A stretch of 13,201 nucleotides of DNA. It comes from Candidatus Zixiibacteriota bacterium. Lineage in GTDB: Bacteria; Zixibacteria; MSB-5A5; CAIYYT01. The stretch is taken from the NCBI GenBank assembly GCA_040235515.1, contig JBECKX010000138.1, positions 1-13,201 of the forward strand, in the 5' to 3' direction. This document shows positions 6,001 to 12,000 of this stretch, one piece after another (within the stretch, counting starts at the first letter, position 1; each line of letters opens with the position of its first letter). The position numbers were made by a program.

Positions 6001-9000
6001 CAACCCCAACGACTTTGTCGCGGCCCAGGTCTACATCGATAATGTCAAAATCAAGGATGGTCAGACTCCGTACAAGGAGACAGTGATGCAGGGTAAGCAT
6101 AAAATCTGGATCGAACATCCCGATTATCAGACCAGGGGAAAGGCTCGCTACATCGAAGTGAATCACGATGAACTGGTCGAATTCCAGTTGAAGCGAAAGT
6201 AGACATACGAACTGAGAAGTATACTTTTTACTGTTGGGAATAGTGAGAATAACGAACCGTTAGTTTTGTGAAAGGAAAACGCCATGAAACGCATTAACGG
6301 ACTATTGATAACTTTGCTGCTGGTGATCCCATTTACCCTGGTATGGGCGGACACCGGCGAACAGATCGAGGAACTGAGCACACTTTACCGGCGCGGACAA
6401 TTTGCGGATGTGGTCATGAAAGCCGGTGACATGCTCGAAAAGCAGCAGTTGGGCGCCGCCGACAGTGCGGCCGTATTGCAGTGGCTCTCACGGGCCTGCG
6501 CACAGAACAAGCAGGAGGGTCAGGCACAAAGCTATTTCGCCGCCCTGGTCAAGCTCGATCCGAACACCAACTTTGATAACGGCAATGAGCCGTCACTGGT
6601 CTCGAAGGCCTGGGCGAAATTCGTCAACGATACCGGCTACAAACCGGGCCAATTCAACAAGATGCTGACCGTGGCCGTCGTTGAATTCGAGAATGGCTCG
6701 ATCGTCGATGCTGACAAGTACAAGACCGCCGGTCTGGGAGTCTCCGAACTGGTTCGCTATAATCTGATCTCTTCGGGACTCGTCTATGTGCCCTCGCGCT
6801 CGCACTTCAACTACCTCAAGCAGGAAATCGAAGCCTCCCAGGCGGGCATGATGGATGAGAACTACCAGATCGAGACCGGCAAAGTGATCGGTGCTTCGAA
6901 TTTCATCTTCGGTACCTTCATGAAGATGCAGAAGAACAAAGTCAGGATCATGGCGCGCGTGATCGACACCGAGACCACGCTGCCGAAGAAGACATTCAGC
7001 GTCCAGGGCGATGACGACAAGATCGGCGACCTCTCGATGGAGCTGGCCGATTCGATCATGGCTTATTTTGAAGTAGAAGCCGAGGCGATCAAGGATGCCA
7101 AGTCGAAGGTTCCTGAGGTGAATCTGGCGGCATTGCTGGCATTTTCACAAGGTTTTGCCTATGAAGAAGAGGGAAATTACAAGAAGGCCGAGCAGTTTTA
7201 TGCCCAGGCGCTCGAGATTTCTCCTGATTTTGTGCTTGCGTCAGATCGTCAACAACGTGTAGAATTGGAGATGAAGGCTGCGGGTCAATAGGCAGATTGA
7301 CTTTGGCGGTCAAAGTTGTCCGTGCAAATTCGGAATGAATGCCGGAAACATTGTGGAACATAATTGTGAAACATACAGGGCAACTAACCGAATAGAGTAC
7401 AAGTAGATGCTTTCAACGGCATCCCGGATCGAACTCTATTCGGTTGGTTGCGATTTTGTAACCAGACAGGCAGATCCCGAGTCAGGCCTCGGGGCGAACG
7501 AAACTGAAAGCGCAGGAGTCTCTTAGAGAAACAATCGCTATATGTGCTGGCGTAACATCGAAAAGATTCTCGTCGGCTTCTCATTACTTGCATTCTCAAT
7601 CGTCATGATCTCCGGTTGTGCAACTACGCGCAGCGCGGGTGATGGCTTTTTGGCGAAGGGGCAGTATGAGCAAGCCATCACTCACTATCAGGGGGAACTG
7701 GCTCGCAGCCCGCAGGATGCTCACCTGTGGCGCAATCTTGGAATAGCCTATTTTCACCAGCAGCGTTTTGACGAAGCGCTGGAGTCGTTCGATCAGGCTG
7801 ACAGGTTCGACCCCAACAATGCCAAAACCGCCCTCTATCGTGGGATGATCCACGAGCAGCGGGGCGAAGTGGACGCGGCTGTCTCCCTGTACCAGAGCTA
7901 CCTGGCGCTCAACCCCGATTCTAAACTCGCCAGCGAGATTCGCTATCGCCTCCATTGGATTCAGGACAAGCACCTGCAGAAGCTGATCGCTGACGCGATC
8001 GCCAATGAGAGCAGTATTGATGTCGCCAATATTCCTTCCAATACAGTTGCCGTAGTGCGGTTTGATGCCAGCAGCCTTCCAGACGAATACAAGCCGCTCG
8101 GCCGGGGACTCGCGGAGTTGATCTATAACGATCTCTCCTATGTGCCTGACCTGAAGCTGGTGGAACGGCTGGAGATCTACAAACTCCAGGAGGAATTAAA
8201 GCTGAGCCAGTCGGAACTGGCGGATCAATTCAACTCACCGCGTGTGGGGAAGATTGTGGGAGCGGCGCGGGTGGTTACCGGCAAACTCGACGAACTTGAG
8301 GACAAAGAGGTTGAGATCGATGCCGGCATCGTGGCGGTTGGTCCCGAATTGGCCAAGTATCCGCAGCGGCAGAAGGGAAGCGTCGGAAAGATTTTTGAGC
8401 TTCAAAAGAAGCTGACTTATGAAATTATCGAGCAGCTCGGATACCAGGTTACTCCCGAACTGCGCGCCGCAATCAACCAAACGCAGACCAATTCGGTTCT
8501 GGCGTTGATTGCATACTCACGCGGTCTTGAGTACGCCGATCGCGGTCTCTTCCAGTTGGCGGAGGCGGAGTTCCAGGCAGCCCTGCAGGAGGATCCCGGA
8601 TTCTCGATGGCACAACAGGCTGCGAGAAGCTTCAGCGGAATCGGTAAGTTTGATGGCGCACCGCGTCCGGTTTCCTCTCTTTCGGAGATGGTGCAGCTTG
8701 ACGTGAAACAGGAGACTCAGTCGTTCGTTGATCAGGGTGATATTATCAAGCGCTTACAGGGCTCAACCGAAGGCGCGCCGCCGGAAGATGAGAACCCGGT
8801 GGTCACACCGCAGGCAACCAACGCAAGCGCCACTGTGACAGGACACACGGACTAATCTGCGTATCACGGCAGACGTGTGAGATAAATAGGAATCGAAGCG
8901 AAGCGAATCAGGATGATGAGAAAGCTCAACCTTCACAATTTTCTAAAGTTCTTAAAGCCCGCAATGAGTGCACTGGCGCTGTCAATGCTCGTGGCAGTAT

Positions 9001-12000
9001 CGGGCACGCAGCCTGCCAGCGCGCAGGGTGACTCCGGATTGCGCAACAGCGTCTCCGGACAGGTGATTTACCAGAGCTGGAAATTGCAGCGCGGTGACTC
9101 GGAGACTACGCTCACTCAGTCGGCGTTGCCCCTCTATCTGCTCGTCCCGATTGCCACTGACTGGGAGTTCCACGTCAGTGGTTCGCTCTCGCGCACCAAT
9201 GTTGATGACAAGGTCTCGCTCGACCAGACGATCTCATCGCTGTCGAGATCGCAGGCGCGCGTTTTCCGCTCATTTGCGGACCACCGGGCGTTTGCCTCCT
9301 TCGGGTTGGTATTCCCAACCGGCAAGACCGGCTACGATTCACTCGAAGTGCAAGTCACCCAGCTTATCGCGGATGACTACCTTAACATCCCGGTCAAGCA
9401 GATCGGTGAAGGCTTTGGCTTGATCGCCCAGGTCGGCGCAGCGAATGAATATGAAGGCTGGTTCATGTATGGAGCTTCGGTCACCTATAATCTCAACGGC
9501 AGTTATACCTATTTCGAGAATGGTGACGACTATAACCCGGGTGACGAGGTCACGCTGCAGGTTTCAGGCACGGCAGCCTCGGAACAGGGCGTGCTCGATG
9601 TCGACCTCTCGTTCCGCCACTTCTTCGCAGATAAGATTGATGGCAACGAAGTATTCAAGAACGGCGCGATCATTGCTGCGGTCGTTCGGGGATCATACCG
9701 ATTTGACAAAGTCAGGACTGCGCTCACGGTTGCGCAGATCATAAGAAGCAAGAACTCGCTGCAATTCGGTTCATCACTTGACAGCGAGGCAAAGAACTCG
9801 AACAACAACAAGACGGTAATTTCGGGATCGCTCGGGTATCCACTGGCGGAGAGTGTGCTGGGATCATTGCATCTTGGCTACCGCATGCTGAGTGCCAATG
9901 ACCTCGAAACGACGTCGCCCGACTACTTCGGCAAATCCTCCATCGTGTCATTCGGTGGTGGCGCGGAGTTTCGGGCTCCTTCCGGAAAATACAGCCTGTT
10001 TGGCCGAGTGACCATCAGTAGTGGTACCGCCGACAAAGACAACCCGGCCGGTGACATCGATGTTTCCGGTACCGAAGTCGTTCTCGGAGGGCGCGCATGG
10101 TTTTGATCCTTAAGCGAATCGCCCTCAGTGCAGCGGCTTTGGCGTTGCTGCTCGTGATCGCCTCATGCTCCACTTCGCCCACCGGGCAGAGTAACGATGT
10201 GGTTGTACGTGCATCACTCAAGCAACTCGGCGTCGGAACGAGCGTCGCCCGCGTGGTGCTTGATGTCTCCAGCGAATCGGGTTACGAGGAGACTCTTGAG
10301 AGTACTCTCGAGGATGGCCTGGTGACCTTCCGTGTCGAGGATATTCCGATCGGTGAGCCGATCAATTTCGTGATGTCGGCGTTCAACGCTCAGAACGTGT
10401 TGCTCTATTCCGGAGAACAGACTGAGAGCTTCTCACCGGGGGACGATGCGACAATCGACATCCTGCTCCTGCCACAGGTTCCGCTGGCGAGAGTTACGCC
10501 GGTTTATAGCCGGATCAACGGCGCATCGGGAAGCAGCACGATCAATGTTATTGTAAGTAATGTGGATGATATCTTCGGGGCGAGCTTCAGAATCGAGTTC
10601 AACCCGAATATCGTTCAGATAGGGGATGTTGAGGAGGGCTCGCTCTTTGATGGAAGCGAGACGCTGTTCCTGTCGCGGGTCGAGAGCAACTATGTTGCAG
10701 TAGCGATTACCCTGCAGGGATCGGGCTCAGCCCAGGGTATCGATGGCGGTGGAGTGATCGCCTCGATCGAACTCCTCCCGGGCAGTTCACTCGGAGCGTC
10801 CGCGCTCACCATCAACCCGGAGACTCTCAGGTTGGTGGACTGGCAGGGCAACACGCTTCCGACAAGTGGCAGCCTCTATATCGATAATGGGGAGGTAGAA
10901 GTCATTGCTCAATAGATATCGGATATTTCTGCTGGTGCTGGTCGCCGCGCTCCTCCTGCTTGGAGTATCGGCCTCTGCACGCACCATTTGGGTGGCCACC
11001 AACGGCAACGATGCCAACAATGGCGACTCCGCCACTCCGGTCCGCACGCTGGCGCGGGCGATCGCATTGGCCTCGACCGCACCACCAATGGATTCGATCA
11101 TCGTCAGGGCGGGCTCCTACACCGATGGTGCAGTGGTCGACCGGCCCGTAATCATCCTGAGTGAATCGGGGGCTGCCAACACGATCCTCAATGCCGATTT
11201 AGCCGGTGTCGCGCTTGTCTACCAGGTTGGCGCAGGCACCACCGGCATTCTCGACGGTTTCTCGATCACGCGCGGTTCTCCTTCAAATATCGAGATCAAC
11301 GGTGATCCCGACTTCGGCAGCATCGGCGTCGAGATCAGAAACTGCAGGATTTACCAGAACAGCCCGACCGCGGAATCCTCCGGCGGTGGAATTTATATGT
11401 ACTATTCCGAGGCGAGGATTCACGACTGCTACTTCTTCGGTAACGAAGCTGGCATGGGAGGAGCAATCTACGCGGAATCCTCAAGTCCCCGCGTCTGGAA
11501 CAATGAATTCGTCGAGAATAAGTCCCTCAGTGGAAATGGCGGAGCAATCTACCAGGGCTTCGAAAGGTTTCAGGCCCGTGCATTGTATCAGAATAATATC
11601 TTTCGCCTGAACAGTTCGATCACCGAAGGCAGCGGCATCTTCTGTCAGACCGGCTCGGTCGATATCATACACAACCTCTTCTTTCAGAACAGCGTTGCGG
11701 ATGGTGCTGGAGCACTATTCACGACAGCCTTTTCAGGCGCGTACGTTGCAAGCAACATTTTCGCGGGCAACACCAACTTTGGCGCATCGTGCGGTGGCAC
11801 GGATGGGGGCAATACCTTCATCAACAACGCGTTTTTCGGCAATGCGCCCGCCGACCTGCCGTCGTTCGATTGCGTGGATCCCGGAACACCGGGTACGAAC
11901 ATCTTCGGCGTCGACCCGCAGTTCGAGAATGCCGCCGGCAACAACTTCAAGTTGGCTGCTAACTCTCCTTTGATCGACAAGGGGGCCCAACTCCCCGGCG

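Follow-up and report, generated by a model that had tools for sequence, protein, structure and literature searches.

The three genes at positions 7542 to 10915 of the window (the whole 13,201-nucleotide stretch analyzed here, contig C193) are the core of a wider conserved envelope cluster comprising a kinase, a CsgG-like protein, a TPR/CsgG lipoprotein, an outer-membrane barrel, and a cohesin lipoprotein. What is observed are the domains, the lipoboxes, the folds, a gene order that is conserved across loci, and two classes each of dockerin and cohesin; on this basis we tentatively propose, as our best explanation, that the cluster may be an outer-membrane cohesin anchor dedicated to a beta-helix/PKD surface protein secreted by the T9SS, with binding between the two proteins being what we infer. 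The cohesin lipoprotein would probably tether this one surface protein. The features of the window, and of three further segments of the same genome, that of a sediment bacterium of the Zixibacteria, are as follows.

212-1897, + strand: secreted putative metalloprotease of the MXAN_6640 HExxH family (NF045524) with a Cys-flanked C-terminal dockerin
1938-3977, + strand: second putative metalloprotease of the MXAN_6640 family (NF045524), carrying an Ig-like domain and, at the C-terminus, a dockerin
4202-6202, + strand: transmembrane Ser/Thr kinase (Pkinase, PEGA) with a PEGA-type beta-sandwich region outside the cytoplasm; first gene of the cluster
6284-7291, + strand: periplasmic paralogue of the TPR/CsgG-like lipoprotein, with a signal peptide without Cys, a CsgG-like middle, and a C-terminal TPR
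7542-8855, + strand: outer-membrane lipoprotein in which three TPRs precede an alpha/beta domain resembling CsgG/LpoB/TolB-N, followed by two C-terminal TPRs and a disordered tail
8913-10106, + strand: 16-stranded outer-membrane beta-barrel (AF2 model) with a signal peptide and the end ...AWF
10097-10915, + strand: cohesin lipoprotein (lipobox, Pfam Cohesin) whose N-terminal domain is rich in beta structure and whose cohesin module is C-terminal
10905-13199, + strand: beta-helix and PKD surface protein (Pfam, NCBIfam), N-terminal 765 residues, the contig end cutting the gene
C74:6241-7542, - strand: C-terminal 434 residues of the beta-helix/PKD protein, with Big_5, an insert-bearing dockerin, and a T9SS type A sorting domain
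L005:649-2985 (contig C24), - strand: 778-aa protein with Cohesin (40.3 bits), Dockerin (40.8 bits), and a T9SS sorting domain
L005:3117-5603 (contig C24), - strand: 828-aa protein with two cohesin stretches (40.9 bits) and a sorting domain

ORF calling in the window places 7542-8855, 8913-10106, and 10097-10915 all on the + strand, and the three-gene set described by the initial annotation is thus real; of its make-up, the TPR/CsgG-like protein and the cohesin lipoprotein stand, and the supposed 395-aa unknown protein is now modeled as a 16-strand outer-membrane barrel. The order TPR/CsgG lipoprotein, barrel, cohesin lipoprotein is kept in 20/20 loci, the cohesin lipoprotein gene lies inside the cluster in all 18 wider loci (drawn from several families), a kinase orthologue occupies its cluster position in 16 of 18 related loci (contig ends cut the other 2), and a CsgG-like paralogue of the 6284-7291 type is found in 16/18, with the kinship among loci causing such conserved linkage to overstate the independence of the counts. 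The cohesin gene shares 10 nt with the barrel gene and 11 nt with the beta-helix gene. No terminator-like site was found on the + strand from 4100 to 11200, and a terminator-like hairpin (4016-4046) lies 3' of the second metalloprotease gene.

The kinase (Pkinase, 1.3e-57; PEGA, 28.3 bits; Pfam) has a hydrophobic stretch near residue 310. The products of the next two genes are related to each other at 7e-17: that of 6284-7291 matches CsgG at 19.0 bits and TPR_8 and TPR_2 at about 37 bits each, and that of 7542-8855, which carries the lipobox ISGC, matches several TPR families and, at full length, scores 20.3 bits for CsgG (Pfam cut-off, 20.8), a value that reaches 22.8 bits when its middle domain is taken alone. 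CsgG is matched by 20/20 orthologues or paralogues of this lipoprotein, the match spanning only profile positions of about 10-111 of 210. In its AF2 model (pLDDT 81.9), the middle domain (residues 141-292) aligns with the TolB N-domain (1c5k_A) at a Z score of 13.7 and an rmsd of 2.4 over 132 residues. TPR_Slam falls just below its cut-off (34.6 bits versus 35.2), the PorE profile reaches 22.7 bits against a cut-off of 600, and an NCBIfam search returned weak TPR matches to the PgaA and BcsC models. For the barrel, no Pfam or NCBIfam family was found, nor a match to PorP_SprF, DUF560, or any other consistent Pfam family. Its AF2 model (pLDDT 84.3, pTM 0.79) has 16 strands and matches CdiB (Z 19.7), CymA (19.2), BcsC (18.2), FhaC (17.5), PgaA (16.5), and PelBC (15.7); all are generic barrel matches, the fold is not specific, and any role assigned to the barrel in the cluster is guesswork. 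Of 151 genomes from the phylum, 92 have the barrel family and 59 lack it.

The 10097-10915 product has the lipobox IASC (a simple lipobox pattern is satisfied by 17/20 of its orthologues) and matches Pfam Cohesin at 2.4e-10 (41.2 bits; cut-off, 24.1). When the profile of the lipoprotein-cohesin family is run against solved structures, 13/13 matches are cohesins (best, 4ums_A at 4.8e-5), the best of them from anchoring scaffoldins. A paralogous three-gene set on contig C96, also reported earlier, was recovered (E = 3.5e-51, 7.9e-10, and 3.9e-11); two of its products have lipoboxes, and it has neither a beta-helix/PKD-type neighbor nor a kinase. The count of only two cohesin-like proteins has to be given up, as three T9SS-sorted proteins on contig C24 have cohesin matches, two of them (listed above) over the Pfam cut-off and the third, together with six more ORFs, below it at 15-22 bits. 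Lipoprotein and C24 cohesins match each other only at E = 0.013, and the genome has two classes of cohesin, as it has two of dockerin. Both modules are indeed widespread in the phylum, with six-frame searches detecting Dockerin_1 in 149 and Cohesin in 135 of 151 sampled genomes, frequencies higher than the earlier ones (229 and 100 of 284).

The gene of the beta-helix/PKD protein is split over the ends of contigs C193 and C74: relative to the 1230-aa orthologue in locus L101, the window part covers residues 24-790 and the C74 part residues 799-1230. The former matches Beta_helix, DUF1565, and PKD (Pfam), as well as choice_anch_Q (34.1 bits versus 25), and the latter matches Dockerin_1 and the sorting domain TIGR04183 (28.2 bits versus 23). 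In 5/5 full-length orthologues, a Dockerin_1 match above the cut-off (24.1-34.8 bits) is followed by sorting-domain matches. This special dockerin has an insert of ~20 residues between its two Ca loops, lacks flanking Cys, and sits just before the sorting domain; the profile of the generic dockerins gives no match to the beta-helix/PKD ORFs at E <= 1e-3. The genome encodes a T9SS (SprA_N, 85.6 bits) and has 25 sorting-domain matches.

A profile of the special dockerin is positive in 56/151 genomes, 49 of which also have the barrel and 7 of which do not. Where the two are on one contig, they are no more than 12.2 kb apart in 37/37 genomes and no more than 6 kb apart in 30, a linkage that spans families f1, f2, f5, f6, f10, f15, and f18 in three arrangements. 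The cohesin gene and the beta-helix/PKD gene move as a unit, lying 3' of the barrel in L100, L101, L107, L110, L115, and the window and divergently upstream of the kinase in L109, L111, L114, and L117. Special dockerin and barrel are on different contigs in 12 of the 49 genomes and look to be truly separate in the 4-contig assembly G013. Among the 92 genomes with the barrel, another 43 give no match to the special-dockerin profile at E <= 1e-8; these include all 10 f3 genomes and, in f10, 12 of the 14 that have the barrel.

In the anchor that we propose, where the roles of barrel and kinase are putative, the barrel and the two CsgG-like/TPR proteins would together make up a platform in the outer membrane on which the cohesin lipoprotein is held or exposed. 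The T9SS would export the beta-helix/PKD cargo and cut off its C-terminal sorting domain, after which the special dockerin preceding that domain would lock onto the lipoprotein cohesin and keep the cargo on the cell surface through a non-covalent, Ca-dependent cohesin-dockerin bond. The two would constitute an anchoring pair, like type II in cellulosome terms, and not an enzyme-loading site. The ~88 proteins with a generic Cys-flanked C-terminal dockerin would more likely dock on the T9SS-sorted C24 cohesin proteins, and they may also cross-bind the lipoprotein cohesin. Surface exposure of the lipoprotein is presumed, for if it faces the periplasm, cohesin and cargo could meet only before export. 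The type A sorting domain gives covalent surface attachment in Porphyromonas, and by itself it could attach the cargo covalently, making a second anchor redundant.

The generic dockerins are numerous. In a six-frame search of the genome, Dockerin_1 was matched 93 times at E <= 1e-3, with 92 matches above the cut-off; the same search was positive in 2/14 control genomes. The matches fall in 88 ORFs, 76 of them with the dockerin within 25 residues of the C-terminus, which upholds and enlarges the set of 57 proteins (47 C-terminal) first described; 72 end within 16 residues of it, mostly in a fixed 12-residue tail (...PCxxC), and both Ca-loop/helix repeats are seen in the consensus. Peptidase or putative metalloprotease families occur in 21 of the 88 ORFs (11 had been counted), Glyco_hydro or Cellulase families in none at E <= 1e-5, again as stated before, and no Pfam family other than dockerin in 37, which had been put at about half. 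The 212-1897 product scores 203.8 bits for NF045524 (cut-off, 140) and 23.5 bits for Dockerin_1 (cut-off, 22.9; residues 495-548 of 561); that of 1938-3977 scores 227.3 bits for NF045524 and only 16.8 bits for Pfam Dockerin_1, yet 7e-32 against the genome's own dockerin profile. That no paper combines Zixibacteria with dockerin is borne out in the literature searched, and the same applies to cohesin.

The initial annotation read the two cohesin lipoproteins as general outer-membrane anchors for dockerin-bearing hydrolases, chiefly peptidases, in a proteolytic cellulosome-like surface assembly. A large, peptidase-rich, glycosidase-free dockerin set in a diderm with lipoprotein cohesins is indeed present, the cohesin is Pfam-significant and lipid-anchored, and the cluster is immediately preceded by two putative metalloprotease genes with dockerin tags, here as well as in L101, L110, and L115 (where orthologues of 212-1897 occur). 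We nonetheless consider this reading unlikely and the lipoproteins unsupported as hydrolase anchors, because T9SS-sorted cohesins exist in the genome, barrel-free families are dockerin-rich, and the cluster is tied to the other, special class of dockerin. The barrel is missing from all 8 f16 genomes, which all have dockerins (at least 39-40 matches each), and barrel-positive versus dockerin-rich genomes number 0/4 versus 4/4 in f11, 0/3 versus 3/3 in f12, and 0/3 versus 3/3 in f8; cohesins extend to these barrel-free families as well, often in ORFs of 1200-2400 aa that hold several cohesins. Models of this kind have been published for other phyla, which speaks for this reading; it also weakens the novelty of a dockerin-cohesin system devoted to protein degradation, because the proteolytic idea has been published, as the available text indicates, for Planctomycetes (PMC6461901) and Cloacimonadota (PMC8542988).

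It is likewise doubtful that the cluster is unrelated to dockerins and serves as an envelope export or maintenance machine like PelBC, AlgK-AlgE, BcsC, PgaA, or CsgG, handling a polymer or unfolded protein, with the "cohesin" a beta-sandwich accessory lipoprotein. The parts list fits, given the alignments of the barrel to BcsC, PgaA, and PelBC, the lipoprotein with TPRs and a TolB-N/CsgG-like domain, and the weak TPR matches, and no dockerin gene adjoins the C96 set or many of the f2, f3, and f10 loci. Against it, neither the 8 window ORFs nor the scanned C96 neighbors include a polysaccharide synthase or a curli-type subunit, porin and TpsB matches of the barrel are equal or better, and the CsgG match covers half of the family profile only; moreover, this machine would leave unexplained both the 37/37 linkage to a dockerin-bearing gene and the fact that the third gene invariably encodes a cohesin-family lipoprotein. 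Far less probable still is a new outer-membrane secretion route in which a periplasm-facing cohesin lipoprotein recognizes C-terminal dockerins as export tags and passes the proteins to the barrel. The near-terminal position and fixed tail of most dockerins, the lack of a T9SS sorting-domain family in all 76 C-terminal-dockerin ORFs, the lack of a clear type II system (one secretin is in a pilus cluster, another among unknown genes), and the alignment of the barrel with TpsB translocators would suit such a route. However, dockerins are nearly universal among the sampled genomes while 59 lack the barrel, neither an energy source nor a plug domain is present, the barrel match is generic, and a C-terminal dockerin is also the rule in classical cellulosomal enzymes.

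The dedicated anchor, our preferred reading, recalls cellulosome anchoring in Clostridia, where a type II cohesin on a cell-bound anchoring protein pairs with a type II dockerin on the scaffoldin. Both have two non-overlapping cohesin and dockerin classes in one genome and one envelope-fixed cohesin encoded beside a single special dockerin. Here, however, the cell is a diderm, the anchor is no SLH protein but a lipoprotein clustered with an outer-membrane barrel, the beta-helix/PKD T9SS cargo proposed as partner has no recognized cohesins and is thus not a scaffoldin, and the cargo set is free of glycoside hydrolases. Slam (surface lipoprotein assembly modulator) of Neisseria unites TPRs and a 14-strand barrel of the DUF560 family in one polypeptide; the TPR region, outer-membrane barrel, and adjoining lipoprotein gene are shared, whereas here TPR protein and barrel are encoded separately, the 16-strand barrel gives no match to DUF560, and the TPR protein has an extra CsgG/TolB-N-like domain. 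The exopolysaccharide ports (PelB-PelC, AlgK-AlgE, BcsC, and PgaA) and CsgG likewise offer periplasmic TPRs, a small TolB-N/CsgG-like lipoprotein domain (PelC resembles the TolB-N fold), and a 16-strand barrel, but the locus has no synthase genes, the blocks are spread differently over polypeptides, and the third gene encodes a cohesin lipoprotein.

Polypeptide degradation has been proposed from genomes, in the available text, for two non-cellulolytic cohesin-dockerin systems: the "planctosome" of Planctomycetes, which has M12B and M14 peptidases as well as thrombospondin type 3 repeats (PMC6461901), and a cellulosome-like complex of Cloacimonadota with S8 and C25 peptidases and a scaffoldin bearing a T9SS C-terminal domain (PMC8542988). 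These families recur here, as do TSP_3 repeats and T9SS-sorted cohesin proteins, on a larger scale (88 ORFs, phylum-wide); the available text of either report makes no mention of a cohesin on a lipoprotein, of a barrel partnered by a TPR/CsgG-like lipoprotein, or of a dockerin preceding a T9SS sorting domain. Finally, in the available account of PorE-PorP-PG1035, an outer-membrane barrel specific to its cargo joins a TPR protein in retaining T9SS cargo at the cell surface (PMC9143113). That system and SprF-SprB, which handle type B T9SS cargo, resemble the proposed anchor in holding cargo non-covalently by means of a barrel and a TPR-bearing, outer-membrane-associated periplasmic protein (PMC9143113); here, by contrast, the barrel has no PorP_SprF match, the cargo has a type A sorting domain (TIGR04183), and the proposed contact is a cohesin-dockerin pair acting through a separate lipoprotein.

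The window, contig C193 of a 3.59-Mb genome assembled into 218 contigs, holds eight long ORFs, every one on the + strand, as follows.

Long ORFs of the window, with the evidence for each assignment
212-1897, + strand: putative HExxH metalloprotease of the MXAN_6640 family with a C-terminal dockerin (203.8 bits against a cut-off of 140)
1938-3977, + strand: second putative HExxH metalloprotease of the MXAN_6640 family with a C-terminal dockerin (227.3 bits against a cut-off of 140)
4202-6202, + strand: membrane-spanning Ser/Thr kinase with a PEGA domain (Pfam scan)
6284-7291, + strand: signal-peptide protein with a weak CsgG match and TPR (Pfam scan)
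7542-8855, + strand: lipoprotein (ISGC) carrying three TPRs, with CsgG matched just below the cut-off (Pfam scan, lipobox)
8913-10106, + strand: barrel protein of 397 aa with no family match (Pfam scan)
10097-10915, + strand: cohesin lipoprotein (IASC) (Pfam Cohesin, 2.4e-10, 41.2 bits against 24.1)
10905-13199, + strand: beta-helix/PKD protein running off the contig (Pfam scan)

The TPR/CsgG lipoprotein, the barrel, and the cohesin lipoprotein make up the three-gene set recognized in the initial annotation, and its paralogous set on contig C96 is likewise present, with lipoboxes on the first and third products. The last three genes of the window overlap one another by 10 and 11 nt. A single transcription unit from the kinase gene onward fits, since no terminator-like site was detected on the + strand between the kinase gene and position 11200 in a promoter/terminator scan (which, as a whole, did not exceed its shuffles); the sequencing runs listed comprise three of DNA, all from one sediment study, and none of RNA. 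A strong terminator-like hairpin (12 pairs, 8 of them G-C) lies at 4016-4046, 3' of the second metalloprotease gene, whose product bears a dockerin that scores only 16.8 bits in Pfam yet 7e-32 against the genome's own dockerin profile. Orthologues of the MXAN_6640 proteins, paired or single, are situated just upstream of the cluster in three other loci (L101, L110, and L115); in two more (L109 and L117), the distance is about 7 kb.

The three genes form the core of a wider cluster that is itself conserved. The order of TPR/CsgG lipoprotein, barrel, and cohesin-family lipoprotein is kept in all 20 loci compared, 19 of which come from other genomes, and 17 of the 20 third-gene proteins show a simple lipobox pattern. 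In a wider synteny set of 18 loci with about 9 kb on each side (8 being the same places as in the 20-locus set), the cohesin lipoprotein is present in 18/18, the kinase in 16 (contig ends truncate the other two loci), the periplasmic CsgG-like paralogue likewise in 16, and a beta-helix/PKD protein of about 1200 to 1400 aa, one a weak match, beside the cohesin gene in 10. At L109, L111, L114, and L117, the cohesin and beta-helix/PKD genes have moved together across the kinase gene and onto the opposite strand. The barrel family occurs in 92 of the 151 sampled genomes of the phylum, distributed by family as f1 (12/12), f3 (10/10), f5 (10/11), f6 (5/5), f10 (14/15), f2 (36/55), f15 (2/2), and f18 (2/2); the sampled members of 11 other families gave no match.

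The 397-aa protein, modeled from an alignment of 19 family members (pLDDT 84.3, pTM 0.79), forms a barrel of 16 strands behind a signal peptide. Foldseek and a wide structural search return generic outer-membrane barrels (CdiB, Z 19.7; CymA, 19.2; BcsC, 18.2; FhaC, 17.5; PgaA, 16.5; PelBC, 15.7) with no clear winner and no specific barrel family. The protein matches no Pfam family at an E value of ≤0.01, and at E ≤ 1 the 19 family members yield scattered weak matches (DUF2490 in 4 and OMP_b-brl in 1). The nearest ESM Atlas clusters, recognized below the usual mark, consist of unnamed proteins of about 380 aa, most often from Gemmatimonadota and Thermodesulfobacteriota, and one of these clusters, also below that mark and so only a lead, is 16% Phenol_MetA_deg. 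Searching a large protein collection with a profile of the family returned nothing beyond 32 first matches, among which the organism names given are of Zixibacteria MAGs only.

In the model of the TPR/CsgG lipoprotein (pLDDT 81.9), a block of TPRs at the N terminus is followed by an alpha/beta middle domain, a pair of TPRs toward the C terminus, and a disordered tail. Scored whole, the 7542-8855 product reaches 20.3 bits against the 20.8 set for CsgG (PF03783), and its isolated middle domain reaches 22.8; among 20 family members, isolated middle domains match CsgG in 20/20 (best, 1.7e-8), LpoB in 5, and TolB_N in 5. These CsgG matches cover profile positions ~10 to 111 of 210, the first half only, and the middle domain of the model superimposes on the TolB N-domain (Z 13.7, rmsd 2.4, 132 residues). 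This half-profile match and the TolB-N-like model place the middle domain in the wider CsgG/LpoB/TolB-N fold group. Against solved chains, the CsgG-domain profile finds LpoB alone, at E values of 0.3 and 1. Membership in CsgG proper, the curli-type channel, for which the match would extend over the full length and include the transmembrane-hairpin segments, is not supported, the match stopping at half the profile. Slam is rejected: no DUF560 match occurs among the 19 barrel family members at E ≤ 1, TPR_Slam (PF24575) scores 34.6 against 35.2, and Slam is a DUF560 barrel fused to N-terminal TPRs, whereas the TPR protein and barrel of the window are separate genes. The same holds for a PorP/SprF-PorE pair, as PorP_SprF matches 0/19 barrel family members and PorE (NF052230) scores 22.7 bits against 600, in the TPR part only.

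Residues 148 to 235 of the 10097-10915 product match PF00963 at 41.2 bits, above the curated cut-off of 24.1, placing it in the family; of eight orthologues, two lie above the cut-off (25.1 and 27.1), two below (21.8 and 20.9), and four longer or duplicated forms are unmatched. A profile of the lipoprotein-cohesin family searched against solved chains gave 13 matches, all 13 to cohesins and led by those of anchoring scaffoldins. A complex prediction combining the cohesin module (residues 100 to 249), a generic C-terminal dockerin, and two Ca ions scored 0.12 against a mark of 0.32 in a run without controls and is uninformative either way.

The beta-helix/PKD gene next to the cohesin gene encodes a dockerin of its own. 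All five full-length orthologues contain an internal Dockerin_1 module above the cut-off (24.1 to 34.8 bits), stretched to about 70 residues and followed by a linker of about 70 residues and then by T9SS sorting-domain matches. The portion within the window aligns to residues 24 to 790 of a 1230-aa orthologue, and contig C74 ends in an ORF, open on its 5' side, that aligns to residues 799 to 1230 of the same protein (44% identity); by this alignment, the ends of C193 (13199) and C74 (7542) belong to one gene broken in assembly, and the orthologue indicates a gap of about 8 codons between the two parts. The C74 fragment has the same long dockerin and, at 28.2 bits against 23 for TIGR04183, qualifies as T9SS type A cargo. 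Adjoining this tail (C74:2469-5477, L121) are genes for a DUF5723/TraF-like protein of barrel type and for an M6 peptidase that bears a T9SS sorting domain. A protein on C140 that matched the beta-helix/PKD query proved to be no paralogue but an S8 peptidase with PKD repeats alone in common.

This special dockerin differs from the generic dockerins of the genome in lacking flanking cysteines, in its helices, and in having about 20 extra residues inserted between its Ca loops, and the generic-dockerin profile does not match the beta-helix/PKD ORFs at E ≤ 1e-3. A profile of the special class finds it in 56 of the 151 genomes, of which 49 are also barrel positive. In all 37 genomes with both on one contig, at most 12.2 kb separates the barrel gene from the nearest copy, and 30 of these genomes keep the distance within 6 kb; this linkage spans f1, f2, f5, f6, f10, f15, and f18, although relatives share synteny by descent, and the counts are to be read accordingly. 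Running counter to it, 12 of the 49 genomes have the two on different contigs (in G013, a relative's genome of 4 contigs, they look truly unlinked), 43 of the 92 barrel-positive genomes have no match to the special profile at E ≤ 1e-8, and 7 genomes have the special dockerin but no barrel. The genomic linkage of the cohesin lipoprotein to a dockerin gene is an association only, and Ca2+-dependent binding between the two products is predicted.

Dockerins extend well beyond this locus. A six-frame Dockerin_1 search of the genome gave 93 matches at E ≤ 1e-3, 92 of them above the Pfam cut-off, whereas only 2 of 14 control genomes gave any match. These fall in 88 ORFs, in 76 of which the module ends within 25 residues of the C terminus, most often with exactly 12 left. 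They are type I dockerins (PF00404), a family marked by two copies of a Ca-binding loop and helix of about 22 residues; the consensus GDADGxGxVSIxDAVxIINYIFGGGP occurs twice per module, and the special class (24.1 to 34.8 bits in 5/5 orthologues) also passes this test. The generic variant reads C-GDADGSG-x-VSIGDAVYIINYIFGGGPAP ... GDADCSG ... IINFIFGGGPAPCxxC and has four conserved cysteines; as seen, for example, at 1676-1894 of the window, one Cys precedes the first Ca loop, one lies in the second (DADCSG), and the tail ends in PCxxC. This four-cysteine frame suggests two disulfides, which are not known from clostridial dockerins.

All 88 ORFs were scanned against Pfam at E ≤ 1e-5 (in sets of 30, 30, 27, and one), and 21 contain a peptidase or putative metalloprotease family: S8 (6), M43 (3), M1 (3), M14 (2), and one each of M12/reprolysin, M28, M4, M23, Trypsin_2, C39-like, and MXAN_6640. 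Beyond the peptidases, the cargo includes a class 3 lipase, a glucose/sorbosone dehydrogenase, an FGE-sulfatase domain, and a Porphyromonas-type peptidyl-arginine deiminase, the last (C213:13878-15779, L089; 101.6 bits) being a protein-modifying enzyme with a C-terminal dockerin. No Glyco_hydro or Cellulase family appears in any of the 88 ORFs at E ≤ 1e-5; three Beta_helix proteins and two Ig_Rha78A_N matches could be carbohydrate active, and in 37 ORFs the dockerin is the sole family. A cellulosome by cargo, in which glycoside hydrolases and plant-cell-wall enzymes dominate, is rejected, with 0/88 glycosidases against 21/88 peptidases. The initial annotation, with 57 dockerins, 47 of them C-terminal, 11 peptidases, and 0 glycosidases, had the same picture, and its figures are lower bounds to the 88, 76, 21, and 0 of the full search and cargo scan. 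Across the phylum, Dockerin_1 is present in 149 of the 151 sampled genomes, with at least about 39 per genome at the upper end.

Several dockerin proteins have unusual architectures. A 522-aa ORF (C53:27310-28875, L049) with four tandem Cys-rich dockerins (119.8 bits in all) and no other family looks like a poly-dockerin connector. Five ORFs (C11:9251-12103, C31:6101-7417, C77:4781-6556, C119:15114-16172, and C165:3823-4797), including an S8 peptidase and the class 3 lipase, have N-terminal dockerins at residues ~30 to 100. Three tandem paralogues of 487 to 519 aa (C16:609-5140, L007), followed by a DegP-type protease gene, have strong C-terminal dockerins (43 to 45 bits), and two of them show weak N-terminal cohesin-like matches (17.3 and 15.2 bits).

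Cohesins, too, are more numerous than the two lipoproteins reported initially. Contig C24 encodes three large consecutive proteins with cohesin matches, two above the cut-off, each ending in a sorting domain that makes it T9SS type A cargo (TIGR04183, 36.5, 37.7, and 35.1 bits against 23). One of 778 aa combines He_PIG, a cohesin (40.3 bits), and a Cys-free, classical-looking dockerin (40.8 bits) and, with both modules, looks like an adaptor; one of 828 aa has two cohesin stretches (40.9 bits); and one of 877 aa has a weak cohesin (18.2 bits). Pfam lists no CBM family in the 778- or 828-aa protein, and by sequence the latter has no relative among solved chains. Their neighbours in this cluster (C24:649-14812, L005) are two small dockerin proteins and two HDOD-domain genes. 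By profile comparison (E = 0.013), the lipoprotein cohesins are a class separate from those of C24. Six further ORFs with cohesin matches of 15 to 22 bits are candidates only, four of the encoded proteins having a dockerin at the C-terminal end as well, and 135 of the 151 sampled genomes have Cohesin at E ≤ 1e-5, often as several modules in ORFs of 1200 to 2400 aa. The seemingly poor ratio of 57 dockerins to 2 cohesins is therefore largely an artefact of missed cohesins. The T9SS itself, noted initially, is borne out by the translocon component SprA_N (85.6 bits) and 25 sorting-domain matches.

Overall, a dedicated anchoring pair accounts for the evidence better than a general docking site does. 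That the cohesin lipoproteins are the docking site for dockerin-tagged hydrolases at large, as initially proposed, is unlikely: dockerins are found in every sampled member of f16 (8/8), f11 (4/4), f12 (3/3), and f8 (3/3), at least about 39 per genome, yet the barrel is found in none (0/8, 0/4, 0/3, and 0/3), and the absence of the cluster from these dockerin-rich families rules it out as a receptor for the phylum's dockerin proteins in general. An export port resembling PelBC, AlgKE, or CsgG and having no relation to dockerins would fit the parts list; we nonetheless regard it as improbable, with no synthase genes seen at the locus and the dockerin linkage left unexplained. Very improbable is a role for the dockerin as an export tag. 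As for secretins by which generic-dockerin proteins might be exported, one lies in a pilus cluster and the other among genes without known function.

For a dedicated pair, the barrel and the two CsgG-like/TPR proteins would keep the cohesin lipoprotein in place in the outer membrane or expose it there, the T9SS would export the beta-helix/PKD cargo, and the special dockerin, near the new C terminus once the sorting domain has been removed, would bind the cohesin and so retain the cargo on the cell; the kinase, encoded first in the cluster, may couple anchoring to a signal. Generic dockerin proteins would load instead on the T9SS-sorted cohesin proteins. Extended to the whole genome, this becomes a doubtful but possible two-tier, Gram-negative version of the cellulosome principle in Zixibacteria, wired to the type IX secretion system. 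In the first tier, the barrel and TPR/CsgG-like lipoproteins, coupled to the transmembrane Ser/Thr kinase, would put the cohesin lipoprotein on the surface, where it would capture T9SS cargo through a dockerin made near-terminal by sorting-domain cleavage, a reversible cohesin-dockerin lock taking the place of covalent LPS attachment. In the second, T9SS-sorted cohesin proteins would load dozens of dockerin-tagged peptidases, yielding a surface "proteolysome."

The cohesin-dockerin pair is microbiology's best-known protein "plug and socket" and has found wide use in biotechnology; nearly all of the pairs tested so far stem from Gram-positive bacteria that degrade cellulose. In the present case, dockerins (149/151 sampled genomes) and cohesins (135/151) are used, mainly on peptidases, throughout an uncultured phylum of sediment dwellers, which bears on the recycling of buried protein in sediments. 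The window supplies a concrete candidate pair, a lipoprotein cohesin and an unusual dockerin whose genes stay adjacent in several families and are linked to an outer-membrane barrel complex and type IX secretion. If the pair binds, it would represent both a new means of attaching secreted proteins to the diderm cell surface and a new, orthogonal cohesin-dockerin specificity.

Other cohesin-dockerin complexes in print include amylosomes and mucinolysomes. In the literature searched, no paper was found to join "Zixibacteria" with "dockerin," as noted initially, or with "cohesin." The initial claim that a dockerin-cohesin system for protein degradation would be new is weakened, the idea having been published for Planctomycetes and Cloacimonadota: the "planctosome" of 2019 is described as a peptide-degrading complex with M12B and M14 peptidases and TSP3 repeats (PMC6461901) and the Cloacimonadota complex of 2021 as having S8 and C25 peptidases and a scaffoldin that bears a T9SS C-terminal domain (PMC8542988). 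Neither the cluster of kinase, CsgG-like protein, barrel, and cohesin lipoprotein nor a dockerin preceding a T9SS sorting domain and kept beside a presumed cohesin was found in the accessible portions of those papers (PMC6461901, PMC8542988) or of the amylosome and mucinolysome literature. The planctosome, Cloacimonadota, and present models all derive from genomes alone.

Two working systems come closest. One is the type II anchoring pair of cellulosomes, to which the window cohesin and the special dockerin may be likened. The other is the PorE-PorP-PG1035 complex, whose barrel and TPR protein reportedly retain a T9SS cargo at the cell surface (PMC9143113).
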